Positions 12,925-34,662 of a stretch of 61,712 bases of DNA are shown one piece after another (positions within the stretch are counted from its first letter, which is position 1; the number at the start of each line of letters is the position of its first letter). A program made the position numbers and the translations under genes. Source of the DNA: a virus (Duplodnaviria; Caudoviricetes); the IMG/VR virus record IMGVR_UViG_3300027917_000003, positions 1 to 61,712 of that record. One strand, 5' to 3'. A model generated the notes under the pieces. The model did no database searches. It was not told the origin of the DNA and saw only the letters and a list, made by a program, of their open reading frames with translations.

Positions 12925-13454
12925 CAGCCCTGCCCCTCCTTTGGGTCGTGCTCGATGATCTGCGCCTTGGCGGCCAGTAGGGCCTGCTTAAAGGCCTCAC
13001 GGGCCTCGGGCGACAGGACGCGCACGTCCACGGTCGTGTGCTGGACGTGGACCGTGGCGTCCCCGGTGATCTCGGTGTTGACGCGCGGGCCGAGGGTGCG
13101 CGGCGCCATCTTCTCCGCCCGCCACTGCGCGGTCGAGATCTTGAGGCGCTGCGAGTTCACGTTCTCCTCGGTCGTCGCGTCGGCCATCGCCTCGATCTTG
13201 TCGAGCAGGAAGTCGGCGAGCGCCTCCCTCGCGCGCGCGCACCGTGCATCGAAATCGGGGCGGGCCGCTCTCCACCGATACAACGCCGCACGGCTCGGCA
13301 TCATCGGATCAGAGCAGATCTGCGAAAAATTCTCGCCATTCATCATGCGCTCGCAGATGATGTCGCCGATCTCGTCAGTGTACGACGATGGACGGCCCAC
13401 CGGGCGCGCAGTGACGCTCGGTGGCTTGTTCGCGGGGACTGGTTTCTTGACCAT
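12924..13454 (-). CDS. terS: Terminase small subunit
   Basis: GRPSSYTDEIGDIICER...G..IC..P.MPS...LYRW HTH (Sf6/P22 TerS-like); upstream of TerL. Confidence 0.85.
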   Translation of the reverse strand: MVKKPVPANKPPSVTARPVGRPSSYTDEIGDIICERMMNGENFSQICSDPMMPSRAALYRWRAARPDFDARCARAREALADFLLDKIEAMADATTEENVNSQRLKISTAQWRAEKMAPRTLGPRVNTEITGDATVHVQHTTVDVRVLSPEAREAFKQALLAAKAQIIEHDPKEGQG

Positions 13455-13732
13455 TACAGCTTGACCTCGACGGTCGCGGCGTAAGATCCGAGGGGCGTCT
13501 TATCGAAGCTCTCGATGGCGCTCATGTAGAGGTCGAAGATCTCCTGCGCCTGAGCGCGCTCGTGCTGGGGCTTCTTGCGCTCCGCGATGACCTTTTTCAG
13601 GATCTTCACGTCGAAGCCGTTTCCCTTCGCCTCCTTGTAAATCTCTGAAATGTCGAGCGAAATGGCTGTTTTTTCGTCCTCCATCTTCTCGATGCGCTGG
13701 ACGATGGTGGCGATCTGATTGTTCGTGGACAT
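13454..13732 (-). CDS. gapR: GapR-like (DUF2312) nucleoid DNA-binding protein
   Basis: IVQRIEKMEDEK..IS.DI.EIYKEAKGNGFDVKILKKVIAERK; GGAGGG RBS. Confidence 0.85.
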   Translation of the reverse strand: MSTNNQIATIVQRIEKMEDEKTAISLDISEIYKEAKGNGFDVKILKKVIAERKKPQHERAQAQEIFDLYMSAIESFDKTPLGSYAATVEVKL

Positions 13733-13840
13733 GCTTACCCCTCCTAATATCAACAAGGCGGTCAGTGTCTCGCAATTCGCTGACCCGGTCAATGCGCCGG
13801 ATTTCTAGGCGCTCCGAAGCCCACCGAAATTATTTTTCAA

Positions 13841-13944
13841 AAAAGTTATCCACAGGGCTCAAACGCTGTAGACAGGCGAAATTATTTCGTCTACAAGTTT
13901 AATCACGGTCGCTGATGACCTGACTGATTGATATGGAGACTGAC
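13841..13944 (+). promoter_or_regulatory. Early promoter cassette 1 (DnaA box 13846-13854)
   Basis: TTATCCACA; TAGACA -35; CGAA-N5-TTCG; CACGGTCGCTGATGACC leader. Confidence 0.75.
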
Positions 13945-14259
13945 ATGACCAAGATCCTCAACGTGACCACCGGCCCCGCCAACGAACTGTTCCCCGGCTG
14001 CAAGGGTTTTGTCGTTGTCGCCGAGACCCGCAAGGGCGAGGTGTTCATCCACGAGCGCAGCGACCTTTCTCTGGCCCAGTGCAAGCGCCTTGCTGATCGC
14101 GTTCAGGTCGCTGGCGAGATTGATGAAAGCCGTTGGGTTTTCTGGCGCACTGTTTACGGCTCTGACGCCTTCCTCGCAGAAGAGGCGGACGTTCACTTCA
14201 TCCTCGGCGGCGGGGGTCGTTACGAAGATCTCCCCGATAGCCTTCGCTCTCTCGCTTAA
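13945..14259 (+). CDS. Early hypothetical protein
   Basis: GGAGA RBS; start at the second ATG. Confidence 0.75.
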   Translation: MTKILNVTTGPANELFPGCKGFVVVAETRKGEVFIHERSDLSLAQCKRLADRVQVAGEIDESRWVFWRTVYGSDAFLAEEADVHFILGGGGRYEDLPDSLRSLA

Positions 14260-14309
14260 TCCAACCGGGGGCTTCGGCCCCCGCCCACCCCAACCGAATG
14301 GAGATTGAT

Positions 14310-14573
14310 ATGCAACGCCAAGTCCCCACCAAAGACACCACTATCCTCGGCATCATGCGCACCGCCGCCTTCTCGACGGGCTTCCGGGAGGCGCAGGCTG
14401 GCAAGCCTATCCGCTATGACGCCTATGAGCATGACGCCAATGGCCAGTGGAACTATGAGCGCGGGCGCATGCTGGGCCTGATGTTTGGCGGCCCCCTGAA
14501 GGTGGGGCGGGCGATCAGTCGGGCCGCAGCCCTTCACTTCGCGATGGCTATTAAGCAGAAGGTCATCCTGTAA
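14310..14573 (+). CDS. Early hypothetical protein
   Basis: ATGGAGATTGATATG leader. Confidence 0.75.
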   Translation: MQRQVPTKDTTILGIMRTAAFSTGFREAQAGKPIRYDAYEHDANGQWNYERGRMLGLMFGGPLKVGRAISRAAALHFAMAIKQKVIL

Positions 14574-14683
14574 AAAAGTTATCCACAGGGTGCGAAAATG
14601 CTTCGCACCCTGTTGACAGGCGAAATTTCTTCGTGCTAAGAGTTATGCACGGTCGCTGATGACCTGACCTGATGGAGATTGAT
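14574..14683 (+). promoter_or_regulatory. Early promoter cassette 2 (DnaA box 14579-14587, TTGACA 14613-14618)
   Basis: Includes the perfect 12-bp inverted repeat ACAGGGTGCGAA/TTCGCACCCTGT. Confidence 0.85.
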
Positions 14684-15295
14684 ATGCCCCTGTTCATCGA
14701 AAACGAAGCCGCCTACGAAGCCGCCATCGAGCGCAACATCGCCAACAACCGCCGCAAGACCGGCGCCCGCAAGTTCGCTGCGCTGTTCGAGGACGCGACC
14801 GCCATCATCGACTTCGTCGAGACCCGCGTGTCCGACGCTCAGGTGGCGCACTGGGCTCGCTTCGGTCGCGGCATGGAGGAGGCCTCCTTCATCGACGCAT
14901 GCTGGGCTGGCCTTCAGACTTTCGGCGGCCTGACCGAAAAGCAGGGTCTGGCGGTGCGCTCGATCATCGCCAAGAACGCCGAGCGCAAGGCTCAGTATCG
15001 CGCCGAGGCCCTCACCAAGGTCCATGTGGGCACGGTCGGCGAGCGCCGCGACTTCGACCTGACCGTGCGCTTCGTGACTGACTTCGAGACCCAGTTCGGC
15101 ATCACCAACGTGTTCGTCATGGAGGACGCCGAGGGCAATGTGGTCGTCTACAAGGGCGCTGGGAGCCTCTACAACGCCGATGGCCAGTTCGCGGTGAAGG
15201 GCGACAAGATCTCGGTCAAGGCGACCGTGAAGGAGCATGGCGAGCGCGATGGCGTGAAGCAGACCATCATCGCCCGCCCGAAGCAGAAGATCTGA
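14684..15295 (+). CDS. Early protein with probable C-terminal OB-fold
   Basis: HVGTVGER...V...D.EGN.VVYK...GD...VKATVKEH...G.KQT. Confidence 0.65.
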   Translation: MPLFIENEAAYEAAIERNIANNRRKTGARKFAALFEDATAIIDFVETRVSDAQVAHWARFGRGMEEASFIDACWAGLQTFGGLTEKQGLAVRSIIAKNAERKAQYRAEALTKVHVGTVGERRDFDLTVRFVTDFETQFGITNVFVMEDAEGNVVVYKGAGSLYNADGQFAVKGDKISVKATVKEHGERDGVKQTIIARPKQKI

Positions 15296-15338
15296 GGGGC
15301 TTCGGCCCCTCCCCACCCCTATCCTGATGGAGATTGAT

Positions 15339-15686
15339 ATGAACACCGTAGCTATCAAAGCCGCTCTTACCTATCCCAAGACCAAGAAAGGTGATGTCGT
15401 CGTCATCGAGCTGACGAGCAGCTATACGACCGCCAAGCTCAAGACGGTAAAAACATCGTCTTATTTCCTCGCCAAGGTCACCAAGACCCGCAATGGGCTT
15501 GCAGTGGACTATACGAAAGCCGATGGCGCCAAGGGGATCGTAGACACACGCCACCGCGTCATGGTGATCAGCCAAGCCGAGACGCAGGCTGCGGCGCGAG
15601 ACATGTTCGGCGCCAGTTTGGCAGACTTCGACAACGTCGATCAGGCGAAAGAGGCGATCCTTCAAAGGGTGAAAGACCTGAGCTGA
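15339..15686 (+). CDS. Early hypothetical protein
   Basis: Conserved leader; codon bias matches the genome. Confidence 0.75.
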   Translation: MNTVAIKAALTYPKTKKGDVVVIELTSSYTTAKLKTVKTSSYFLAKVTKTRNGLAVDYTKADGAKGIVDTRHRVMVISQAETQAAARDMFGASLADFDNVDQAKEAILQRVKDLS

Positions 15687-15687
15687 A

Positions 15688-15798
15688 AATAGTTATCCAC
15701 AGGGTGCGAAAATGCTTCGCACCCTGTTGACAGGCGAAATTTCTTCGTGCTAAGGTTCAATCACGGTCGCTGATGACCTGAACTGATGGAGATTAGAG
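15688..15798 (+). promoter_or_regulatory. Early promoter cassette 3 (DnaA box 15693-15701, TTGACA 15727-15732, TAAGGT 15751-15756)
   Basis: Near-identical to cassette 2. Confidence 0.85.
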
Positions 15799-16026
15799 AT
15801 GACCAACCGCTTCCCCTACGCCACCAAGATGCTCAACCTCGGCAAGCATGGCTACATGCTCCGCATCACCATTTCTCTCGCCAAGATTGAAGAGACGAAG
15901 GCGGAGATGATGTTGGATAGCGATATGATCAACTCAGCGGAAGAGCTGATCCGCTACCTCAATGCGGAAATCATCCGCGAAGAGGCCGACGCCGAAGAGT
16001 GTTATACCGACTGGGCCTCCGACTAA
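15799..16026 (+). CDS. Early hypothetical protein
   Basis: GGAGA RBS. Confidence 0.7.
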   Translation: MTNRFPYATKMLNLGKHGYMLRITISLAKIEETKAEMMLDSDMINSAEELIRYLNAEIIREEADAEECYTDWASD

Positions 16027-16072
16027 CCGGGGGCTTCGGCCCCCTTCCACCTCAACCCTGATGGAGATTGAT

Positions 16073-16351
16073 ATGACCTTCGACTTCTACAACCTCGGCG
16101 AGAACAGCGTAAGCTTCACCTTCTCGGCCTCCGGCGAGACCCTCTGGGACCAGATGTGCGAGGCCATCGCCGATCACATCTTCGGCGCTGACCCTTACGC
16201 CGAGACGCCCGCCCGCGACTTCGTGGAGATCGTCGAGATGCAGACGCCTGACGAGGCCGAGTACGTCGAGGCCGTCTTCGTGAAGGGCAAGCTGGTCGGC
16301 TCCCTCGGCGGCCCCTTCTGGCTGGACCCCAGCGAGTATGTGAAGATCTAA
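16073..16351 (+). CDS. Early acidic hypothetical protein (start MTFDFY)
   Basis: Conserved leader. Confidence 0.7.
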   Translation: MTFDFYNLGENSVSFTFSASGETLWDQMCEAIADHIFGADPYAETPARDFVEIVEMQTPDEAEYVEAVFVKGKLVGSLGGPFWLDPSEYVKI

Positions 16352-16353
16352 AA

Positions 16354-16465
16354 AAAAGTTATCCACAGGATGCGAAAATGCTTCGCACCCTGTTGACAGG
16401 CGAAAATAGTTCGCGTAAGTTCAAACCACGGTCGAGATAGAGACCGCAACCTGATGGAGATTGAT
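16354..16465 (+). promoter_or_regulatory. Early promoter cassette 4 (DnaA box 16359-16367, TTGACA 16393-16398, TAAGTT 16416-16421)
   Basis: Same repeat family as cassettes 1-3. Confidence 0.85.
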
Positions 16466-16765
16466 ATGACCGCTCTTAACACCGTCGCCGCCACCGAAGT
16501 CTACCTCGCCGCCAAGGCCCAGTTCGACGCTGCCGAGACCGTCCTCAAGGCCGCCAAGAAGGATGTCGTGGACATCGTCGGCGGTTACGGTTTCCTCGAA
16601 GGCGAGACCGCCGACCTCGACATCGCCTTGCAGGCCCGCAAGTCCATCGACGAGAAGCTCCTCCTCCAGTTCCTGACGCAGGAGCAGATCGACGCCTGCA
16701 AGGTCGAGGGCGCCGCCTTCCCGGTCGTGCGCATCAAGGCCAAGAAGGTCAAGAAGGCGGCCTAA
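16466..16765 (+). CDS. Early hypothetical protein
   Basis: Conserved leader. Confidence 0.75.
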   Translation: MTALNTVAATEVYLAAKAQFDAAETVLKAAKKDVVDIVGGYGFLEGETADLDIALQARKSIDEKLLLQFLTQEQIDACKVEGAAFPVVRIKAKKVKKAA

Positions 16766-16814
16766 TCATCAACCGGGGGCTTCGGCCCCCACCCACCCCT
16801 GAAGGAGAATTGAT

Positions 16815-17024
16815 ATGTACTACGTTGTCCCCAAAGATCGCTCCGTCCTCAAGAGCCTCAAGACCTTCGAGACCCTCTACGAAGCCCGCCGCTTCGCGGA
16901 AGACACCAAGCTGGTGACCAGCGAAAACTACGACATCATCCGCATGGACCGGGTCTGGACCACCCAGACCTTCGACGAGGCCCACCTCGCCTCGCTCGAC
17001 ATCCCCCACATGGCCCGCGATTAA
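16815..17024 (+). CDS. Early hypothetical protein
   Basis: AAGGAG RBS after a UUCG hairpin. Confidence 0.7.
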   Translation: MYYVVPKDRSVLKSLKTFETLYEARRFAEDTKLVTSENYDIIRMDRVWTTQTFDEAHLASLDIPHMARD

Positions 17025-17077
17025 TATCCCTTGGGGAGGGCTCAGGCTCTCCCCAGTCCCACGCAATGGAGATTGAA

Positions 17078-17275
17078 ATGCAAAGCTTCCTCGACGCCTA
17101 TCGCGCCAACCCCACGGATATGAACGCCCTCAAGCTGGCGCATCATGCCAAGAAACACCCCCGCACTGCTGACGCCTTGCCTATGGTCGAGGCCGTTCTG
17201 ATCGAAAGGGCGCGTGAACAGCTCGCGCCCTTTGTCGCCAAGCTCAACGCCATCGTGATCGGGGAGTTCATCTAA
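17078..17275 (+). CDS. Early hypothetical protein
   Basis: ATGGAGATTGAAATG leader. Confidence 0.7.
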   Translation: MQSFLDAYRANPTDMNALKLAHHAKKHPRTADALPMVEAVLIERAREQLAPFVAKLNAIVIGEFI

Positions 17276-17610
17276 TGAGCGAGTTTGAAAAGATGATGAA
17301 GAACCTCAGAGAGATGGCGGAAGACGCCGAGGCGGGCGATGGCATCGACTACCTCCTCAACATCGAGGATTATGACGGTGATCGTTTCACCATTGCAAAG
17401 CCCTATCATGACGACACGCTTATGCTGCGCATTGAGAACGATGACCTGATCGCAGGGTTCATCGTTAACGCACCGCGCGCGATGGCCATCGTCGGATGCC
17501 TGATGAAGCTCATCGAGGAGTGGGATTTCAAAAAAGACATCCAAGAGCTGAAGAAAGACGCGGATTACCTCGACGGGATCTTTGATGACGAGGAAGGGGA
17601 GGACAAGTGA
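17275..17610 (+). CDS. Highly acidic hypothetical protein
   Basis: 111 aa, D/E-rich, translationally coupled. Confidence 0.65.
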   Translation: MSEFEKMMKNLREMAEDAEAGDGIDYLLNIEDYDGDRFTIAKPYHDDTLMLRIENDDLIAGFIVNAPRAMAIVGCLMKLIEEWDFKKDIQELKKDADYLDGIFDDEEGEDK

Positions 17611-17813
17611 TGCCTCACCCCGTCCACACGTCCATGAACCCTGACGGCACCTTCTCCGTCTTCTACTTCGACCGCCTGATAGGCTGGATCGCCAAGGGCG
17701 CCATGAAGCGCAGGGGCAAACCTATCTGGCGAGCCCTCACCACCCACGGCGACCTTCGCCACGCCCACTCACAGGCCTCTGCGCGGGCCGCACTACTGGA
17801 GATGATGCATTGA
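17607..17813 (+). CDS. Hypothetical protein
   Basis: Coupled ORF. Confidence 0.55.
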   Translation: MMPHPVHTSMNPDGTFSVFYFDRLIGWIAKGAMKRRGKPIWRALTTHGDLRHAHSQASARAALLEMMH

Positions 17814-18031
17814 CCCCTGACCAACTGAAAGACATCATGCACAAGCTTGACTTCACAACGGCTGATGTGGCGACCGTCATGGGCGTCACCCGCCGCACCG
17901 TCCAGCTCTGGCTGGCGGGGACCAGTCCCGTGCCCCTCTCCGCCGCGCTCGTGCTGGAAGGGATTTTCGAGGGCCTGCTCTCAATGGAATGGGTCGAGGA
18001 CAAGATCGTCCTCGCACTGCGGATCGCCTGA
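17810..18031 (+). CDS. XRE-family HTH protein
   Basis: MTPDQLK...TTADVATVMGVTRRTVQLWLAG..PVP; TTG start after GGAGA. Confidence 0.8.
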   Translation: MTPDQLKDIMHKLDFTTADVATVMGVTRRTVQLWLAGTSPVPLSAALVLEGIFEGLLSMEWVEDKIVLALRIA

Positions 18032-18057
18032 CGCCTAGAGGGGGTCGTCAGGCATAG

Positions 18058-18102
18058 GGGGCCGGGGGGCAGGTTCTGCGTTCCCCCGGCCCTTTTCTGT
18101 TT
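18058..18102 (+). terminator. Terminator closing the early operon
   Basis: GGGCCGGGGG/CCCCCGGCCC stem followed by TTTTCTGTTT at a convergent junction. Confidence 0.75.
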
Positions 18103-18767
18103 CAGGCCCCCGAAGGGGCCAACTCAAAAGGGACAGGGTCGTCTATGTGCGCCTTGCTGTCAGGGATGGCGTCCAGCGGATCTCTGGGAGGCCCTGAGAC
18201 CCGCTCCACCTGAGCGCCGGGGAAGGACGCCTTCACCGCCGCCAGCGTGGGATAGTTAGCCAGAAGCCTTCCCACCTCTGACATCGTGTAGACTTCGACG
18301 TGCCTGCCCTGCGCCACGACCAGACGTGCGTCCACGTCGTTTTTAACGACCGCCACGACCGTCCCGTCAGGCGTGACGGTCTCCCATACCTCGGGCGCCA
18401 ATAGATGGGCTCCAGCGGCCTCCGCAGCCCTGTCCAGAGCCCTCCAAGCCTTGATCATCCGGTCGGCCTCGGTCTTCACGTCCTGAAGGTTGCCGCGCCA
18501 GATCGCCTGATTGGTCTTGTAGCGTTGCCTGTCAAACCTTTCACGCAATTCACGATCTACAAGGAGGCGCAGGCGGTCCCGGCCCCACTTCTCCTCCATC
18601 GCCACGGCGACCATGTCGAGGTCGTCGAGATGCTCACGACCGGCGATGTAGGTGCCGGGCGTCATGTGCCAGTCCGGGAAGTCCCGGTCGGTCGTGGGGA
18701 CGCCGAAGTGGGTCCGGGTGCCCGGAGGCCACGGCTTGAAGTCATGCTTCTTGGGCGCCTTAGCCAT
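18102..18767 (-). CDS. Hypothetical protein
   Basis: 221 aa; GGAGG RBS. Confidence 0.7.
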   Translation of the reverse strand: MAKAPKKHDFKPWPPGTRTHFGVPTTDRDFPDWHMTPGTYIAGREHLDDLDMVAVAMEEKWGRDRLRLLVDRELRERFDRQRYKTNQAIWRGNLQDVKTEADRMIKAWRALDRAAEAAGAHLLAPEVWETVTPDGTVVAVVKNDVDARLVVAQGRHVEVYTMSEVGRLLANYPTLAAVKASFPGAQVERVSGPPRDPLDAIPDSKAHIDDPVPFELAPSGA

Positions 18768-19374
18768 TGGCCGCCTCCTTTTTCACGAGGCGCAGGCCGC
18801 TAATGCGCTTGTGCGTGTCGATCAGGGCGAACTCAATGACGCCGCAATCAATCAGGGCCGTGACGTATGACTTCGCCTTGGCGGCTGACACATTGAACTC
18901 CTCGGCGATCATATCGACGATGTAGCGCCCCAGCTTCTTGGTCTGAGACTTGTGCGAGAGCGGGAGCATGCCAGACGCCTTGCGCTCCAAGATGCTCTCA
19001 ATAACAAACTCCCTGACCTTCGGGGGGATATATATCGCCCTCGGGGGCGCCCCATCGTCTGCCGGGAGCGCCACGTCCCTGCCATTGGCCTGCGCCACGA
19101 CCCACTCGCGCATCTCGGGGTAAAACTCGACAAGCAGGACACTGTCGCTCGTCCCGGCCATGTATTCGCCCTTCACGCCGAGGCGCCACACGTTCTTCTT
19201 CGCCGGGCGGTCGAGGTACAGCTTGAGGCTCTTCCAGCCATCCTTCGAGTAGGCCGTACACTCGACCAGCCGCCAGTCACCCGCCTGCCTGATCGTCACC
19301 TCATGCGAGTGGACCCTCAACGTCGCGCCGCCCACCTTCACTAGCTCATAGTCCATTCTGACCCCCATCTTCAT
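18760..19374 (-). CDS. Protein whose C-terminal domain is paralogous to the primase-helicase C-terminus
   Basis: PLS..SQT.K.GRY...F...D......GL shared; start may be 19356. Confidence 0.7.
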   Translation of the reverse strand: MKMGVRMDYELVKVGGATLRVHSHEVTIRQAGDWRLVECTAYSKDGWKSLKLYLDRPAKKNVWRLGVKGEYMAGTSDSVLLVEFYPEMREWVVAQANGRDVALPADDGAPPRAIYIPPKVREFVIESILERKASGMLPLSHKSQTKKLGRYIVDMIAEEFNVSAAKAKSYVTALIDCGVIEFALIDTHKRISGLRLVKKEAANG

Positions 19375-19544
19375 TGCTAAGGTTAAAACGCTAACTCACA
19401 GTCTTCAGCGCGTCAATCCCGCACCAACTGCACCAACGCGGGCGAGGCCCGGAGCGGCAGCGCAGGGCCGACCCCGCCCCCTCCACAATGTCCGGTCTCT
19501 TAGAGGGGGCCGCGAAGCGCGCCCCTAGACCCTCCATTGACCCT

Positions 19545-19730
19545 TGCGGAACTCACACCCCGCCGAAGCGGGGGGTGTTAATGTAATACATTACACCCCA
19601 ACTCCACGCACAACCTCCGCAAGATTTTTTTCCTTTGCGGAAGATGTGCGGAGGTTGTGCGGAGGTTGTGCGGAGGTTGTCCATTTTCTCCCAGTTTTCT
19701 GGGGTTTTTAACCTCCGCACAAGTTCCGCA
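19545..19730. other. Putative replication origin (iterons plus palindrome)
   Basis: Non-coding; three tandem TGTGCGGAGGT at 19645-19677, inverted copies at 19608-19621 and 19710-19722; AT-centred palindrome at 19572-19599. Confidence 0.6.
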
Positions 19731-19946
19731 TCATTCCCACGCCCTTTTCGTGTCGTCGGGGTGGTAAGGGCGGTATTCCTGAAGGTCTCCCGGCACCAGC
19801 ATGAGGAAGTCCTCGGTGTGGTGCCAGACCAATTTCATGCCCTCTGGGGCGGTCAGGGAGTAGTCCTCAATGACCATGCAGGGTATCCACAGCCCCTTCA
19901 TCAGGCGGGTCTTCCAGCGGCGCTTGGAGATCTGTTTGAGGCGCAT
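19731..19946 (-). CDS. Hypothetical protein
   Basis: Coupled ORF. Confidence 0.55.
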   Translation of the reverse strand: MRLKQISKRRWKTRLMKGLWIPCMVIEDYSLTAPEGMKLVWHHTEDFLMLVPGDLQEYRPYHPDDTKRAWE

Positions 19947-20434
19947 CAGACCTTCCTCCGGGGATCTTGATAGTAGGCGTAAGTGTCCGGCGGCTGGGAC
20001 ATGAAGACGACATCGTCGGGGCCGTAGACGCGGTTGTCGGCGCCCTTGCCGATTGTCTGAACGGCGAAGGGAGCCGCTTCATGGTGCAGGCGGAAGGCCT
20101 GCGGCTCCGGGTGCTGGAAGAACCGCATGGCCTTCTCATCCGCCCGGCTCTCAATGGCCGCCGTCTGAAGGCCGGACATGGACAGGCGGTTGGTGGCGAG
20201 GCCGAGGCGCATATAGAAGCCCTCGCTCAGGAAGGCGAAGGGGTCGCCAGCCGTCTCCATGAGCTTCGTCTCGACCCACTCGCCGGTGACGAGGTCGCGG
20301 CCCCTGACGAGCATGTATGGCTCGAACGGGATGACCTTCACGGGCATCAGGTTCTGGGCGCTGACGATGGCGGGCGCCGCAAACAGGGACGCCATGCCGG
20401 TGAGGAAGCCCCTGCGTGATGATGTTAAGCTCAT
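19946..20434 (-). CDS. Protein with twin-arginine (Tat)-like signal
   Basis: SRRGFLTGMASLFAAPAIVSA. Confidence 0.7.
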   Translation of the reverse strand: MSLTSSRRGFLTGMASLFAAPAIVSAQNLMPVKVIPFEPYMLVRGRDLVTGEWVETKLMETAGDPFAFLSEGFYMRLGLATNRLSMSGLQTAAIESRADEKAMRFFQHPEPQAFRLHHEAAPFAVQTIGKGADNRVYGPDDVVFMSQPPDTYAYYQDPRRKV

Positions 20435-21186: not shown

Positions 21187-21483
21187 TCAGACCTTCTCCG
21201 GCCCGTCAGGAAGAGGCATCCAATGGGTTGGCTCCGGCTCGAACATGTCCTCGCCATCATGGGTCGAGCCCCAACGCTCGACGACGACGCACCAGTCCAC
21301 GATCATGCACTCACCATCCCACCAGCCGAGGATAGCGGTCCCGTCCTTGGGGGCGGTTTCAATCGGTTGCCACGGGCTTCCGGCATAGCGCCGCTCGTCC
21401 GCCACCATCTTGTTGAGGGCAGTGGAGACTTCCGCCTCCACCTCCTCGCTGATCTCGGCAGGGATCACCTCACGCGGCGTCAT
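21187..21483 (-). CDS. DUF551-like protein
   Basis: WQPIETAPKDGT...PTHWMPLP. Confidence 0.75.
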   Translation of the reverse strand: MTPREVIPAEISEEVEAEVSTALNKMVADERRYAGSPWQPIETAPKDGTAILGWWDGECMIVDWCVVVERWGSTHDGEDMFEPEPTHWMPLPDGPEKV

Positions 21484-21958
21484 TAGCCACCTCCGGCGGA
21501 TCGGGAAGATGCATCCAGTGGGTCGGGGTCGTGTCCTCTGACCAGCTCCAGCCCGGCGTCATTTCTTCGTCGCCCTGCCAGAAATTATATGTCTCCCAGT
21601 GGCCGGGCTCGACAGTCCACTCACCATTCCCGTCCTTACCGGCCAAGATGATGATGGTGTTGTCCTTTGGCGCTGTGCTGATCGGCTTCCAGCACATCAT
21701 AAAGTATTTTCTTTCCTTCTTAACGGGCTCCTTCACAGGCTTCTCCGCCAGCGTCAAATTGAACCCGGCAAGGATATTTTTAAGCTCTTTCAAGCTCTTG
21801 GCGGCAAAGCCCGGAACGCGCATCCATTCAGCTTCGGTCCACTTCACGATGTCGCCAAGCGTCTCCATGTCTTCGCAAGCAACTCGATTTTTAATTCGGG
21901 CATGCAGTAGAGTGTCGGGAAGCTTGATGTCTTCAAAGCGAATATCCAAGGGGTTCAT
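21470..21958 (-). CDS. RNAP alpha-CTD-like domain fused to a DUF551-like domain
   Basis: RIKN....METLGDIVKWTEAEWMRVPGFAAKSLKELKNIL..FNLTL, then WKPISTAPKD...PTHWMHLP. Confidence 0.75.
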   Translation of the reverse strand: MNPLDIRFEDIKLPDTLLHARIKNRVACEDMETLGDIVKWTEAEWMRVPGFAAKSLKELKNILAGFNLTLAEKPVKEPVKKERKYFMMCWKPISTAPKDNTIIILAGKDGNGEWTVEPGHWETYNFWQGDEEMTPGWSWSEDTTPTHWMHLPDPPEVANDAA

Positions 21959-22218: not shown

Positions 22219-24390
22219 CTAGTCGATTGATCCGATTACCTTAAGGCCTTGCATCTTCGTGTTCTTGTCCACGACCTCATAAGACAGAACTTGGTTAGAG
22301 AGCCACGTCTCCACCATCATATCGACCAGCTTTTCAGGCAGATCGAATTGCTGACCCAGAACCGCCGCCACATAGCGCCCCTGCTTGCGGGTCTGGGAAT
22401 AGCTTGAGAGCGGGCGCCCCGAGAACCACGCGACCCTAATCACATTGATCATGTCGCGGCAGACTTGTTTCTCGGGCCAGACGCTCTTGGGCGCCGCCTT
22501 CTCGTTCGCCTGCGCGGCGTAGAGACTGCCCTCGCCGGTGATGTCATTGACGACGACCTTCTTCAGTTCGAAGGGCAGGCGCCAGCCATCCTCGGCGCTC
22601 TTGATCTTGCGGGCGTGGATCTCGCCGACGCTCTCGCCCTCCTCGCGCTCGATGCCGAGCAGGAAGTCACCGGCGCCGTCGAAGACGGTCGAGCCGCGAA
22701 GGTTGCCAGCCCGGCTCGTGTGGTGGACGCCGACGACTGTCGCCCCGAAGGTCGTGCGGACGGCGTCGCAGGCGCCAATGAAGAGGGTCATGTCCTTCTG
22801 GAGGTTCTCGTCTGCGCCCGGCAAGACGCGGCTGACCGTGTCCACGAAGACCGTGACAGGCATCTCTCCCGCCAGCTTGCCAGCCTTGGCCACCGTGCGC
22901 AGGAGCCGCTCCACGTCCGCCTGAGCCATGAAATTGATGTTCTGGCGGATCAGGTAGAAGGGCAGGCCACGAACCTGAACGCCAGCCTCCCTCTCCCACG
23001 CGAGAATGCGGTTGCCGATGTCGCCAACGCCCTCGGACGAGATGTAGACGACCGGGCCAGACTTGTTGATCTTGCGTCCAAACCAGTCTGCGCGCTGGGC
23101 GCAGATCGACAGGCCCATGCCGATTGTGATGAAGCTCTTGCCGCATCCCGGAGGCCCGTAAACGAAACCGAGCGCGGTTTCGATCATCAGCTTGTCGATC
23201 AGGTACTTGGGCTTGGGGAGGGACAGGATGCCCTCCACGTCGAGCAGCTCATACTCGTCCTCGACTGTCGGTTTTACGACATCCACGAACAGCTCGCCCG
23301 TTTCCTCATCGACCTTGTAGAACTTGACGGGCTGCGGCTCATCGGCCTGATCGAAAGGGCGGCTGGGGCGCTCCACCTTCGCATGCTCTGCTACCTTGCC
23401 GTCCCACTGCTCAATGGCCAAGGTCCATTTGTGGCGGAACAGGCTGAACCCGCGACCCTCCCGTTCGAGGAGGTCAAAGTTCGAGGCGCCGGGCATATGC
23501 AGGCGGCTCTTCACCTTGCGCTCGTAGGTGGCGAAGGCGTCATTCATGGCCGTTTCGCTCTCCACCTTCGAGGGCGGAATGGGCGCGTCCCGATAGAGAT
23601 CGACGACCGCAGCCCACACGAGCTTGGTCATATAGTCCTCGCGGCCATCGACGATGTTGCCAAAGTTATCCACAGCTTTATTTGGTGACGCAGTTTTTTC
23701 GCCTGTTACACGGTTCACGCCACTTGACCCGCCATGCTCGATGGCGAGCTTCGTGATCTCGTCACAGAACCATTGTGGCGCTGTGGCGATCTCCATTTCC
23801 CACGGCTCGTGGCCCTCCTTCCAGCGGTAGGACTTGCCGCTCTCGTGGGTGCTGGGGGGCATCATGGCGAAGCCACCCTGCCCCCTGATGTCCACCCCGA
23901 TGCTTGTCTTGCATGTCGGGGGAACCCAGCCCAGAGGGGCGCGGAAGAAGAGCTGAACGCCTCCGCCGCCGGTGGCCTGCTCGACCGTGTCCAGCTCACC
24001 GGCGTTCTGTTTCATGTGAAACATGTCGTCCCACCACGCCTGCGCACGGACATCCTTGTGCAGGTCGAGATCCACGACGAAGATCCCATTGGAGCAGGCG
24101 CCCGCGATCAGGCCCATGTTGTTGCGGCGGGCATGCTCGCCATCCTCGCCATACCAACGCTCGAAGGTGAAGTCAGGGATCAGCTCGTTTTCCAATTCGC
24201 GCCACTTCGGCAACGCCGGGCGCTTCCATTGGTTCTTGTTTTCCCTGTGACTCATGGCCGGGACGACCTGCATCCCGTTGCCACGATACATGCGGGCCCA
24301 CTCTGCCGGATCAGCGAAGTCTGGGTCAAACGAAGCGTTCATATTAATTGTTCCATCATTTCCATCTGAAGGCAGCGACATCACGTCCAT
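22219..24390 (-). CDS. Bifunctional Prim-Pol primase / RepA-type (AAA_25) helicase
   Basis: NMGL..G...VVDLD, TGGGG.QLFF, VDIRGQGG..PPS; Walker A GPPGCGKS; VDT; VHHT; LRGS. Confidence 0.9.
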   Translation of the reverse strand: MDVMSLPSDGNDGTINMNASFDPDFADPAEWARMYRGNGMQVVPAMSHRENKNQWKRPALPKWRELENELIPDFTFERWYGEDGEHARRNNMGLIAGACSNGIFVVDLDLHKDVRAQAWWDDMFHMKQNAGELDTVEQATGGGGVQLFFRAPLGWVPPTCKTSIGVDIRGQGGFAMMPPSTHESGKSYRWKEGHEPWEMEIATAPQWFCDEITKLAIEHGGSSGVNRVTGEKTASPNKAVDNFGNIVDGREDYMTKLVWAAVVDLYRDAPIPPSKVESETAMNDAFATYERKVKSRLHMPGASNFDLLEREGRGFSLFRHKWTLAIEQWDGKVAEHAKVERPSRPFDQADEPQPVKFYKVDEETGELFVDVVKPTVEDEYELLDVEGILSLPKPKYLIDKLMIETALGFVYGPPGCGKSFITIGMGLSICAQRADWFGRKINKSGPVVYISSEGVGDIGNRILAWEREAGVQVRGLPFYLIRQNINFMAQADVERLLRTVAKAGKLAGEMPVTVFVDTVSRVLPGADENLQKDMTLFIGACDAVRTTFGATVVGVHHTSRAGNLRGSTVFDGAGDFLLGIEREEGESVGEIHARKIKSAEDGWRLPFELKKVVVNDITGEGSLYAAQANEKAAPKSVWPEKQVCRDMINVIRVAWFSGRPLSSYSQTRKQGRYVAAVLGQQFDLPEKLVDMMVETWLSNQVLSYEVVDKNTKMQGLKVIGSID

Positions 24391-25927: not shown

Positions 25928-25945
25928 GGCCCCCTCCAAGTGATT

Positions 25946-26040
25946 TGCGGAGGTTGAGACATTTTGTCTTCGAAGTCAACTAGGGGAAAAGACAAATTGT
26001 CCGTTGACATGGTTTCGCAAATCAGCCTACCCTGCAAACA
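25946..26040. promoter_or_regulatory. Divergent promoter/operator region
   Basis: TTGACA at 26004-26009 (+), TTGACT on (-); two GACA-N3-TGTC palindromes at 25958-25968 and 25991-26001. Confidence 0.65.
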
Positions 26041-26058
26041 GTTGAAATTGAGGTACAC

Positions 26059-26811
26059 ATGAAAAATCCATTCGAGGTCCACGACCTCCAGCACCTCTCC
26101 CCATCCGCCTGCAATCTCTTCGTCAACAGCCCGGCGATGTTCGTGCTTGAGAAATGCATGAAGAAGCGCAGCCCTGTCGGCGCCGCAGCCTATCGAGGCA
26201 CTGCCGTCGAGGCAGGGATCGTCGAGGGTCTTCTCAACGGCTCTGATGACGCCACCTGCGTGAAGCTGGCCGAGGCCGAGTTTGATAAGCTCACTGCGCT
26301 CTCGGGCGACAGCCGCCGCGAGAAAGAGGCGGCCGCCATTGGCGACATGGTCAAAATGGGCCTGTCCGAGCTGCGCGCCTATGGGAAGCCCACCTCGACG
26401 CAGGGCAAGATCGAATATCACATTGAGGGCCTGATGGTCCCGATGATCGGCTACTATGACTTGGAGTGGGCCAATCATGGCATCCTCACTGATATTAAAA
26501 CTACTCACGCACTCCCGTCGAAAATATCCACCAGCCACGCGAGGCAAGTTGCTCTCTATGTCGCTGCACGGGGCAACAATCTCGATGCGCGTCTCACCTA
26601 CGTCACCTCCAAAAAGGTGGCTACTTACCACTTGGAGAATGTGGAGCAGCATGTGCTGGCTCTGGAAAAGATTGCGCTGACGATCCAGCGTTTCCTGTCG
26701 ATCTCGAACGACCCCGCCGAACTGGCGGCCATCGTCGTGCCGGAGGTGGACAGCTTCTACTTTGCAGATCCGATGGCCCGTAAGGCAGCGTTTGACGTGT
26801 GGGGGCTGTGA
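26059..26811 (+). CDS. PD-(D/E)XK nuclease (phage exonuclease-like)
   Basis: HLSPS, GTAVE, GYYD..DIKT, QVALY. Confidence 0.8.
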   Translation: MKNPFEVHDLQHLSPSACNLFVNSPAMFVLEKCMKKRSPVGAAAYRGTAVEAGIVEGLLNGSDDATCVKLAEAEFDKLTALSGDSRREKEAAAIGDMVKMGLSELRAYGKPTSTQGKIEYHIEGLMVPMIGYYDLEWANHGILTDIKTTHALPSKISTSHARQVALYVAARGNNLDARLTYVTSKKVATYHLENVEQHVLALEKIALTIQRFLSISNDPAELAAIVVPEVDSFYFADPMARKAAFDVWGL

Positions 26812-31150: not shown

Positions 31151-31435
31151 ATGACTGAATGGCAACCAATCGAAACCGCGCCAAAGGATGGAACACATTT
31201 TCTGTCAACATCCAGATATTTGGGTGGTGAAATTTTTATCTGCACTTGGAGCGACAGAACATTGGTTCACAGTGATGGAAAAGAGCATCACAGTGGTTGG
31301 TGGGTGGTTGGTATTCCTAAACGGTATTATGCTGGTTGGGGGCCATTTTATTCTCCAATCAAGCAAGATGACCTGATGCCTACCCACTGGATGCCTTTGC
31401 CTGCGCCGCCTAAAAGGGGGAAGAAAAATGGCTGA
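31151..31435 (+). CDS. DUF551-like protein
   Basis: WQPIETAPKDGT...PTHWMPLP. Confidence 0.75.
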   Translation: MTEWQPIETAPKDGTHFLSTSRYLGGEIFICTWSDRTLVHSDGKEHHSGWWVVGIPKRYYAGWGPFYSPIKQDDLMPTHWMPLPAPPKRGKKNG

Positions 31436-32814: not shown

Positions 32815-32830
32815 TCAAATGGAGAATAAA

Positions 32831-33334
32831 ATGAGGACGCTTGAGGAACTCCACGCACATTACAAGGCCGTTCGCGCCAGATTAGATAACCCCGTTAAGA
32901 AGGAACCCGCAGTCCGCCTCATTTACCCGGAACCAGAACCGGCGCCGTACCCAGACCCCCTCGACGTTGTGGAAGTTGTTGAAGCCCTGCCGGAGGAGCC
33001 CATTGCCGCCCCTCCGGTGGCCACTGAGACCCCTGCAAGAAAGATCCTGTCAGAGGTAGCCGAGAAGCATGGAATGCCTCCCACGGTCTTCCGCAGCAAG
33101 AGCAGGGACGCAACCTATGTGCTGTGCCGTCAGGAGGCGGCTTATCGGCTCAAGACCGAGCTGTCTTTTTCCCTGAGCCAGATTGGCCGCCTGATGGGCC
33201 ACCGGGACCACACGACCGTCCTCCACGCCATCCGTCGATACGAAAAAAATCTCGCCCTCGGCTTGGGGCCTTGGGCGAGCAAGTGCGTCTCGAACGCCTG
33301 TGTCACTCAGGTGGAACCCACAGGCGCGACATGA
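32831..33334 (+). CDS. DnaA C-terminal (domain IV) DNA-binding protein
   Basis: ILSEVA..HG.....RSKSR....CRQEAAY....LSFSLSQIGRLMGHRDHTTVLHA; no AAA+ domain. Confidence 0.9.
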   Translation: MRTLEELHAHYKAVRARLDNPVKKEPAVRLIYPEPEPAPYPDPLDVVEVVEALPEEPIAAPPVATETPARKILSEVAEKHGMPPTVFRSKSRDATYVLCRQEAAYRLKTELSFSLSQIGRLMGHRDHTTVLHAIRRYEKNLALGLGPWASKCVSNACVTQVEPTGAT

Positions 33335-33561
33335 TCATGGATGATCTCAGCTCATCATGCAAGGAGGCCCTTCCCCAGTCGGGGGAGGGTCAACCCATAT
33401 TAGGGGTGACGATATTGGAGCTTCGGCTCTTTTCGTGCCGCTACATAATTGGCTCCGACGAAAACGTCGGGGCCATTTTTTGTGGGAGCCAGACGGCCAA
33501 GGGCTCCTACTGCCAGACCCACTACAGCCTGTGCTACATCAAGACCAAGCCGCTCACTTGA
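33331..33561 (+). CDS. GcrA C-terminal-domain-like protein
   Basis: TILEL...CRYIIG......FCG.....SYC..H...Y. Confidence 0.8.
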   Translation: MIMDDLSSSCKEALPQSGEGQPILGVTILELRLFSCRYIIGSDENVGAIFCGSQTAKGSYCQTHYSLCYIKTKPLT

Positions 33562-34150
33562 TATTCATAAAGCTGCTCAGGCAATAGCGCCCGAGGCCCT
33601 TCCACGGCTCGACGCCGTCCTTCATTTTGACTTGCGTGACGCCGTGGCGCAGGCAGGACGGGAAGATGATCAACATATTGTTCTCGACCAAAATTGTTTC
33701 GTCGAGGTCCGAGAAGACCAGATCGCCGCCCTCGAAATTCCGTGGCTCTTTGAAATGCCAAGAGAGCGCGGTGACCGTCGCTGTATCCGAGTGCGGTTTG
33801 TAGTGATCCGTGGCCTCGTAATAGCTCAACAAGGTCGTGTCTGCGTTCACCGCATTGATGCACTTGGTGAGCGGGTGCAGATCCGCAAAAGCCTTGAACA
33901 CGGGCGCCGAGAAAATTTTCCGGTTGACCTTCAGGATGTTTGACATCGAACGGTCGGCATAGATGTTGTCGAGGAAGACGCCCCTGTTCTTCTTCATCAT
34001 CGGATTGAGCTGGCCGGTGGCCTGCGGTGGCTGGAGCTTGTGCTTGTGCGTCAAGAACTCCAGCTCTTGCCAGATCAGGGCCTGTTCCTCATCGGTGTAG
34101 AAGTTTCGCACGAGTAGGTAGTAGGGGTGCGGCGTTTTAAGGATCTCCAT
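33554..34150 (-). CDS. 2OG-Fe(II) oxygenase
   Basis: Y..HSD, FEGGDL, IFPS..RH.V, R. Confidence 0.85.
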   Translation of the reverse strand: MEILKTPHPYYLLVRNFYTDEEQALIWQELEFLTHKHKLQPPQATGQLNPMMKKNRGVFLDNIYADRSMSNILKVNRKIFSAPVFKAFADLHPLTKCINAVNADTTLLSYYEATDHYKPHSDTATVTALSWHFKEPRNFEGGDLVFSDLDETILVENNMLIIFPSCLRHGVTQVKMKDGVEPWKGLGRYCLSSFMNIK

Positions 34151-34662
34151 TACAGGATCTCCTTCAACTTGAAGGCGACGGTGACGCGCAGATCGGTACA
34201 AAAGCGCGATGGATCAGCGCCAAAGTGATAGAGGGTGCTGTTGAACATGCATGCGCAGTTCCGTTTTGGATAGGCCGTGTGGGTCTGGCCGTCCTCAAAC
34301 ACAACAGTCTGGCCGCCCCACCTGACGTCCCACTCGGGGTTCACATAGAAGACGAAGGTCTTGTAAAGCTCTGGCGCATAAGTCTCGGGGTCAACGTCTG
34401 TATGGGCGTCGCCGGGGAGGCCGTGCGTCTGGCCATTGGCGTAGACGCGCTCAATCTCAAACTTCTTGCCGGTCAGTTCTTCAATCCGAAGGAGAAATTT
34501 GTCGTGGAAAAAAGGATCTGCGGAAAGGTCCATATACCAGAACTGGATCTGCGCCGGGCTCAGTTTGCTGAAGCCGCTGAACTTCCACTCGTTCCCGTGA
34601 AGGGTTTTGGCGACGACATAAGCGTAATCGTCCTCGGAGAGGACATCCTCAAACCACTGCAT
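34150..34662 (-). CDS. 2OG-Fe(II) oxygenase
   Basis: YANGQT..HTD, W...WGG.T, FNS...H, R.TVAFKL. Confidence 0.85.
   Translation of the reverse strand: MQWFEDVLSEDDYAYVVAKTLHGNEWKFSGFSKLSPAQIQFWYMDLSADPFFHDKFLLRIEELTGKKFEIERVYANGQTHGLPGDAHTDVDPETYAPELYKTFVFYVNPEWDVRWGGQTVVFEDGQTHTAYPKRNCACMFNSTLYHFGADPSRFCTDLRVTVAFKLKEIL

Follow-up and report, generated by a model that had tools for sequence, protein, structure and literature searches.

DnaA boxes as a conserved module of repeated promoter cassettes in an uncultured phage, and a candidate split activator that may read them

The sequence considered here, hereafter the window, is the complete IMG/VR virus record IMGVR_UViG_3300027917_000003 (61,712 bases; Duplodnaviria, Caudoviricetes), the genome of an uncultured phage with a 99-base terminal repeat and 60% G+C. 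Within it, a rightward block of small genes at 13.9-18.0 kb is served by four repeated cassettes, each carrying a perfect DnaA box, the word read by domain IV of the replication initiator DnaA, upstream of a -35 element. Why would a phage place the code of a replication initiator at its own promoters, and which protein reads it there? From sequence, we infer that the cassettes are promoters and that the block is early. The arrangement is a real, conserved and unusual regulatory design: in an abundant uncultured clade, the exact DnaA code serves as a selected promoter module, and a DnaA reading head and a GcrA sigma70 dock are encoded as separate small proteins. No description of such cassettes, or of phage proteins limited to domain IV at phage promoters, was found in searches of the literature. 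If the sites are read as proposed below, phage gene expression would be tied to the host replication initiator. Furthermore, because the parts are small and defined (a 9-bp site and proteins of ~170 and 76 aa), they should be easy to test directly and usable as tools.

DnaA boxes in the repeated cassettes

The exact word TTATCCACA occurs five times in the window, always on the + strand (Table 1), against an expectation of 0.07, and none of 100 shuffled sequences reached five copies. Relaxing the pattern to TTATNCACA returned the same five sites only (0.60 expected), and the extended context AGTTATCCACAGG, present four times in forward and never in reverse orientation, contains all four cassette boxes. 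The initial annotation had described these four as consensus DnaA boxes upstream of TTGACA or TAGACA; both statements hold, and a fifth copy that it did not report lies elsewhere in the genome. All five sites are exact matches to the nine-base consensus TTATnCACA, in which position 5 is free (PMC5742627).

The four cassettes are duplicated units (repeat families D1 and D7). In the internal ones, the stop codon of the upstream gene is followed by an A-run, the box, a hairpin, the -35 hexamer, a 17-bp spacer, the -10 hexamer, a leader, a Shine-Dalgarno sequence and the ATG; the leader (CACGGTCGC...) is conserved, and GGAGATTGATATG follows it. The first cassette, which faces a divergent gene for a GapR-like protein, has the box and lacks the hairpin. 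Successive boxes lie 733, 1114 and 666 bp apart, and the gap from box to -35 is 14 bp in the first cassette and 25 bp in each of the others, the hexamer being TAGACA in one of the four (at 13869) and TTGACA in three (at 14613, 15727 and 16393), always with a 17-bp spacer. The cassette promoters were missed by a generic sigma-70 promoter scan, owing to weak -10 hexamers (TACAAG, CTAAGA, CTAAGG and TAAGTT). Conservation of the core across relatives supports them as candidate promoters of the sigma70 type, and they may resemble alphaproteobacterial housekeeping promoters. The hairpins are perfect 12-bp stems (-14 to -21 kcal/mol) with no T-run, and that of the second cassette is likely a terminator or insulator for the upstream unit. 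A separate set of GC-rich hairpins with a TTCG loop (GGGGCTTCGGCCCC), also with no T-run, follows the first gene of each unit (14268-14281, 15296-15309, 16030-16043 and 16776-16789); these may be RNA stabilisers or weak terminators.

Relatives were gathered by a pattern scan of viral contigs and by fetching loci through the GapR-like, domain IV and other genes, and many of them are fragments. To avoid the circularity of searching with the box itself, cassettes were located by core promoter and Shine-Dalgarno sequence alone. Among the 40 unique cassettes obtained in this way, 28 carry the exact box, so the absence of the box from homologous cassettes, which the initial annotation had named as a ground for abandoning its reading, is not what is observed. 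Three further cassettes carry a single mismatch, in every case at position 5 (TTATTCACA twice and TTATACACA once); two contain words with two mismatches, one of them at the box position and the other a spurious match inside the hairpin; and seven, mostly first cassettes of a more distant subclade, contain nothing box-like. When cassettes were instead collected by the box, its immediate flanks also proved nearly constant: all 34 cassettes carry A at -2, and G is found at -1 and at +10 in 97% each and at +11 in 91%.

The surroundings behave differently from the box. Between the box and the -35 element, the sequence drifts, and the hairpin stems change yet still pair (-14 to -24 kcal/mol). The gap from box to -35 falls into classes of 14-15 bp (10 cassettes), 25 bp (12) and 29-32 bp (9). 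Helical phasing of the box to the -35 element was considered and rejected, given that these gaps form two phase classes; with so variable a gap, the box is therefore not fixed to one face of the helix. Since the flanks drift while the box stays, and since it varies only at the free position 5, the box appears to be under selection of its own. From these comparisons, we are fairly confident that the boxes are true DnaA-type (domain IV) sites under selection and that they form a modular upstream promoter input separate from the promoter core. When positions 13000-20000 were compared with GenBank phages at the nucleotide level, no related cassette region emerged; the four weak matches each covered 1-3% of the query.

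The fifth box, inside the primase-helicase gene, is retained in the window and in G005, G006, G009 and G011:C128. It belongs to a 100-bp block (23613-23717) that separates the Prim-Pol and AAA_25 domains and shows 87-97% invariance among four sequences. However, this stretch encodes protein, and other coding parts of the gene reach the same level. On the - strand, a stretch resembling a degenerate cassette core, GTAACAGGCGAAA, precedes this box. The site could be an origin or an internal promoter with a box at its start site, or it could reflect plain protein-level conservation.

A DnaA domain IV gene coupled to a GcrA-type docking gene

The same genome encodes a protein of the family that reads such boxes. 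The DnaA domain IV protein placed at 32831-33334 by the initial annotation is real: P0001 matches Pfam Bac_DnaA_C (PF08299) with 59.9 bits (cut-off 31.5; E 2.5e-16) and keeps residues that, according to a review, are required for box binding. The second ATG (32831), 7 nt after GGAG, fits the family alignment better as a start than 32819. Judged against full-length DnaA, P0001 has a Pfam match to domain IV only, and domains I-III, with the AAA+ ATPase, are absent; its sequence and its structural model thus indicate that it is not a replication initiator. The model comprises an N-terminal helix (residues 8-23), a disordered proline-rich linker (24-71) and domain IV (72-147), the last with a predicted local distance difference test (pLDDT) score of 88-96. 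Superposed on the DnaA-DNA complex 1j1v_A, the modelled domain IV gives a root-mean-square deviation of 1.3 Å over 77 columns and a TM score of 0.77 (target). The E-value of this match, 1.4e-3, is slightly above the tool's 0.001 line, and the top ten matches are all DnaA. In the 1j1v alignment, R96 and T132 of P0001 fall on R399 and T435 of Escherichia coli DnaA, and R96, D130, H131, T132 and T133, the equivalents of R399, D433, H434, T435 and T436, do not vary among 46 family members. According to a review, the substitutions R399A and T435M abolished box binding by E. coli DnaA.

The N-terminal helix is conserved to the same degree as the DNA-binding helix among the 46 homologues. Its motif, H-Y-K/A-x-V-R/W-x-R-L/I (HYK-VR-RL; residues 7-21 of P0001), recurs in the homologues L022, L020 and P0119. 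As it is common to domain IV-only proteins of unrelated phages, the helix therefore probably holds a partner. In metagenomes, the domain IV family has 241 homologues, none of them characterised.

The stop codon of the domain IV gene overlaps, as ATGA, the start of the gene for P0122. This protein matches Pfam GcrA (PF07750) with 32.3 bits (cut-off 26.9) at profile positions 101-146 only, and it aligns to the sigma70-interacting domain of GcrA in PDB entries 5yix_B and 7ye1_G. The N-terminal DNA-binding domain of GcrA (residues 1-45) is absent, so that P0122 is not a full GcrA. Its zinc ligands, C36-X14-C51-X9-C61-X2-H64, are invariant in 18 homologues and follow the spacing of the CCCH zinc finger of GcrA, C-X14-C-X9-C-X2-H (PMC5887438). 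Four of the six residues whose substitution broke sigma70 binding are retained, and the other two are a conservative change of W to Y and a change of F to A. The ATGA-overlapping pair is found in all seven relatives whose locus passes the domain IV stop and carries the following open reading frame, and GcrA matches adjoin domain IV on G010:C124 and G011:C128. Additionally, a GcrA-family gene lies 0.2-3 kb away on the same strand in three of the seven other GapR phages that have a domain IV gene. A predicted complex of P0001 and P0122 scored 0.00, which counts neither for nor against contact.

The initial annotation had asked whether boxes and the domain IV gene go together in relatives. Within the clade they do, on every contig that is long enough, namely the window, G005, G011:C128 and G010:C124. 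Both G005 and G011:C128 carry two cassette boxes and the primase box, all exact, and G010:C124 carries a single cassette with the position-5 variant TTATTCACA. As these contigs all belong to one clade, their agreement reflects shared ancestry and is not an independent test. A domain IV match was absent from the cassette-bearing fragments G001-G004, which are 22-57% complete, end short of the expected position of the gene and are uninformative. Outside the clade, the association breaks down, with domain IV genes in phages that have no such cassettes. Seven of 43 GapR-phage records of at least 35 kb, chosen from 80 loci, carry domain IV. The relaxed word TTATNCACA is present in four of these seven (9 sites, versus 3 for a reversed control word) and in 9 of the 36 without domain IV (9 sites, control 9), an enrichment that is weak at best. 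The presence of the gene without cassettes outside the clade suggests that it possibly had an older role aimed at host DnaA boxes, and the promoter boxes may be a later addition in the clade of the window. A further observation concerns L091 and L097, two unrelated GapR-phage contigs from IMG/VR. In both, an exact box stands in similar surroundings (CGGTTATCCACAGG, then TGGACAA...GTCCT), which possibly represent a second conserved element of this kind.

Candidate readers of the boxes

We tentatively favour the reading in which the boxes are upstream sites for the phage's own domain IV protein, probably acting with the sigma70 docker as a two-part activator, as the sequences and models suggest. 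The cassettes would divide the 13.9-18.0 kb block into four insulated transcription units. P0001 would be the main working reader, combining an N-terminal helix, a flexible linker of ~50 residues and a DNA-reading domain; P0122, translationally coupled to it, would provide the sigma70 dock, so that P0001 reads the box and P0122 holds the RNA polymerase-sigma70 complex. On entry of the DNA, host DnaA would be expected on the perfect boxes, and a handover to the phage protein would follow. The sites, their conservation, the way in which they vary, the two domains and the coupling of the two genes are observed; box binding, the sign of its effect, the contact between P0001 and P0122 and the timing are what we infer. 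What favours this split activator is that the two genes are coupled, that the tether is flexible, that variable spacing is tolerated and that GafA offers a precedent. In particular, the coupling of the domain IV gene to a sigma70-docking domain points to activation by the phage pair, not to plain displacement, and a flexibly tethered reader would tolerate non-phased spacing better than a rigid one.

GafA, the activator of the Rhodobacter capsulatus gene transfer agent, reads promoter DNA with a DnaA-like N-terminal domain of the helix-turn-helix type and binds RNA polymerase; in Hyphomicrobiales, it is encoded by two genes, a small DnaA-like one followed by an RNA-polymerase-binding one (PMC9638019). 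Like the proposed pair, it activates an alphaproteobacterial virus-like element, and its split form has the gene order of the window, where the small DnaA-like gene directly precedes, with the ATGA overlap, the gene for the putative polymerase-binding protein. The resemblance ends at the details. GafA, as described there, binds omega through a DUF6456-type region, whereas the second gene of the window encodes a GcrA sigma70-docking zinc domain, and Pfam scans of the phage proteins gave no DUF6456 match. Furthermore, GafA resembles DnaA only distantly in its DnaA-like domain, while P0001 belongs clearly to Bac_DnaA_C and its sites are exact DnaA consensus. The likeness to GafA is thus an analogy, not membership.

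The second comparison is with GcrA of Caulobacter crescentus, which gives RNA polymerase a flexibly tethered DNA reader (PMC4647560, PMC5887438). P0122 shares with it the CCCH zinc ligands and most of the key residues of the sigma70 interface. However, it lacks the DNA-binding domain and most of the linker, its candidate reader is a separate protein of another family, and the cassette sites lie upstream of the -35 element, a position at which GcrA sites do not occur in the account of PMC5887438. A phage-made 'GcrA with a swapped head', assembled from parts of two host cell-cycle regulators, in which DnaA domain IV reads the boxes, the GcrA zinc domain docks sigma70 and host DnaA occupies the sites first, is possible but doubtful. 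If true, the phage would sense the replication state of the host on entry and then take the promoters over, providing a natural split activator that uses the DNA code of a replication initiator.

Several observations weigh against the split activator. The box centres lie ~55-76 bp upstream of the inferred start site, and full-length GcrA, with a linker of ~64 residues, is described as unable to reach upstream of the -35 element from sigma region 2 (PMC5887438); bridging the box and sigma region 2 would thus place high demands on geometry. With near-consensus -35 elements (TTGACA in three of four), the promoters may need no activator. Nine of the 40 cassettes have no true box, including the first cassettes of the distant subclade. 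The domain IV gene lies 16-19 kb away at the end of another operon, in which case the cassettes would be delayed and not immediate-early. Some phage homologues that have the HYK-VR-RL helix lack a neighbouring GcrA gene, and the helix may thus have a partner other than P0122. Moreover, box-bearing cassettes are much rarer than phage domain IV genes: no exact box is present in three GenBank phages that encode domain IV (which have 0, 0 and 1 copies of TTATNCACA), and none of the 9 TTATNCACA sites inspected in the domain IV GapR phages is in cassette layout.

The circuit first suggested by the initial annotation reads the same parts differently. Host DnaA would activate the cassettes on entry, coupling their expression to the DnaA level, and the phage domain IV protein would later displace it and end the activation. 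Perfect consensus boxes should bind any DnaA, and their position upstream of the core promoter means that a bound protein would not obstruct RNA polymerase. P0001 keeps the DNA-reading domain only, which is the design of a competitor, and the spread of domain IV genes without cassettes fits a competitor at DnaA sites generally. DnaA also acts at phage lambda pR. On bacterial chromosomes, some of the ~300 DnaA boxes serve transcriptional regulation, according to a review. The promoters regulated in that way resemble the cassettes in having single high-affinity boxes nearby, but the boxes of the window form a repeated, strictly conserved cassette module, and the phage itself supplies a truncated reader. 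A precedent for such a circuit is 'lytic deferment', in which sites for CtrA, a host cell-cycle master regulator, lie in the promoters of alphaproteobacterial phages and couple expression to the host state, as documented by electrophoretic mobility shift assays and reporters (PMC9437464). The regulator there is CtrA and not DnaA, and the same source reports, for a scan of cultured phages with DnaA, GcrA and SciP motifs, no positional asymmetry in any subset, so that promoters with DnaA boxes were sought there and did not turn up.

This circuit does not account for why the domain IV gene stays coupled to one for a sigma70-docking domain, why the N-terminal helix of P0001 is invariant or why a palindrome lies between the -35 and -10 elements. 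The palindrome, CGAA-N5-TTCG, has seven copies in the genome, where 1.56 are expected, all of them within the cassettes: one copy lies in the -35/-10 spacer of every cassette and one at the centre of each hairpin. Relatives keep this palindrome, which probably serves as an operator for a second, dimeric regulator, sited where a repressor would block RNA polymerase, and as such it is a better candidate for an off-switch than displacement at the box; the helix-turn-helix (HTH) protein encoded at 17810-18031 is a candidate reader. Additionally, the non-phased spacing is awkward for an activator that touches RNA polymerase from a fixed face, and the near-consensus -35 makes a strict need for an activator less likely. 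The circuit of host DnaA activation and later displacement is plausible, although less probable than the phage split activator, and the two readings can be combined.

A role outside transcription is improbable. Under this explanation, the boxes would be a sink for host DnaA or a mark for a step of replication, and they would sit at cassettes only through duplication of the cassettes. The cassettes are clearly duplicated units, the fifth conserved box lies outside them in the primase-helicase gene, and the Pfam scans gave no DNA polymerase match, so that host replication proteins would be required. However, the titration in the manner of datA that the initial annotation had allowed for does not agree with the architecture. 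Minimal datA places three boxes and an IHF site within 183 bp, according to a review; both systems use high-affinity boxes, but those of the window are single and 666-1114 bp apart. Nor do the boxes, being dispersed, resemble a DnaA-dependent origin, in which they would cluster tightly next to an AT-rich unwinding element. Within the intergenic region 19600-19730, there is an iteron cluster, consisting of three tandem copies of GTGCGGAGGTT (19646-19678), an inverted copy at 19710 and flanking T-runs. On its sequence, this cluster (19646-19720) is likely the phage replication origin, separate from the DnaA boxes. Furthermore, a domain IV protein made by the phage would compete for the boxes and free host DnaA, the opposite of a sink, and the boxes are individually kept amid drift at a constant place relative to hairpin and promoter.

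The boxes might instead mark unit boundaries together with the hairpins, a bound DnaA-type protein acting as a roadblock against read-through. Every box of an internal cassette comes after the upstream stop codon and before a stable hairpin, which begins within or right after the box and, having no T-run, looks weak as a terminator on its own. The first cassette, however, has a box with neither an upstream gene on the + strand nor a hairpin. That the first cassettes of the distant subclade are those without a box cuts both ways, and we regard the roadblock as quite unlikely. Finally, that the conserved word is read by another protein, such as one of the several small HTH proteins of the phage, and only coincides with a DnaA box would fit the conservation beyond the nine bases (-2, -1, +10 and +11), but it is very unlikely because the word is an exact 9-mer match, varies nowhere but at the free position and has its cognate reading domain encoded in the same genomes.

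Genome setting and other features

Pfam and PHROG scans of the window identified an SU10-type portal, adaptors, a terminase, a lysozyme, a Prim-Pol/AAA_25 primase-helicase and the GapR-like protein; no integrase, RNA polymerase, sigma factor or DNA polymerase was among the matches, and no tRNA genes were found in the window. As neither an RNA polymerase nor a sigma factor appeared in these scans, the phage would therefore depend on the host RNA polymerase throughout. The GapR and GcrA genes point to an alphaproteobacterial host. Two relatives of the window, G010:C124 (58.6 kb) and G011:C128 (61.0 kb), sit in bins titled as Opitutae metagenome-assembled genomes; this binning or host assignment is doubtful because GcrA-family matches in those bins occur only on phage-like contigs. 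The coordinates of the features discussed are collected in Table 1.

Table 1. Coordinates of the cassette elements, boxes and associated genes in the window
Feature	Position	Strand	Description
GapR-like DNA-binding protein	13454..13792	-	divergent from cassette 1; likely start 13733, after AGGAGG
DnaA box 1	13846..13854	+	between GapR-like gene and first cassette gene; no hairpin
Cassette 1 core promoter	13869..13897	+	TAGACA, 17-bp spacer with CGAAATTATTTCG, TACAAG; kept in first cassettes of relatives
Block of ~12 small genes under the four cassettes	13933..18031	+	functions unassigned except HTH protein 17810-18031
DnaA box 2	14579..14587	+	immediately 3' of stop codon of upstream gene and A-run
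Hairpin 2	14585..14613	+	12-bp stem, 5-nt loop, CGAA-N5-TTCG central; -20.8 kcal/mol
Cassette 2 core promoter	14613..14641	+	TTGACA, 17-bp spacer with CGAAATTTCTTCG, CTAAGA
DnaA box 3	15693..15701	+	exact TTATCCACA
Hairpin 3 and cassette 3 core	15699..15755	+	hairpin 15699-15727; TTGACA 15727-15732; CTAAGG 15750-15755
DnaA box 4	16359..16367	+	exact TTATCCACA
Hairpin 4 and cassette 4 core	16365..16421	+	hairpin 16365-16393; TTGACA 16393-16398; TAAGTT 16416-16421
CGAA-N5-TTCG palindromes	13877-13889, 14593-14605, 14621-14633, 15707-15719, 15735-15747, 16373-16385, 16401-16413		
Fifth exact box	23666..23674	+	antisense within Prim-Pol/AAA_25 primase-helicase gene (22219-24390, -)
P0001, DnaA domain IV-only protein	32819..33334	+	171 aa; likely start 32831
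P0122, GcrA sigma70-interacting-domain-only protein	33331..33561	+	76 aa; ATGA overlap with domain IV stop (33331-33334)

Several other genes deserve mention. A 162-aa protein (21470-21958, - strand) fuses a region resembling the C-terminal domain of the RNA polymerase alpha subunit (24.5 bits, cut-off 23.8) to DUF551, and DUF551-like tails are also encoded at 21187-21483 and 31151-31435. A GroES-like gene lies at 2313-2723, and two tandem 2OG-Fe(II) oxygenase genes (33554-34662, - strand) stand at the beginning of the structural arm. Lastly, a second divergent control region at 25940-26060 has no DnaA box and carries two GACA-N3-TGTC palindromes (25958 and 25991) beside a TTGACA element, which suggests that the replication block and the 26-33.5 kb block answer to another regulator.

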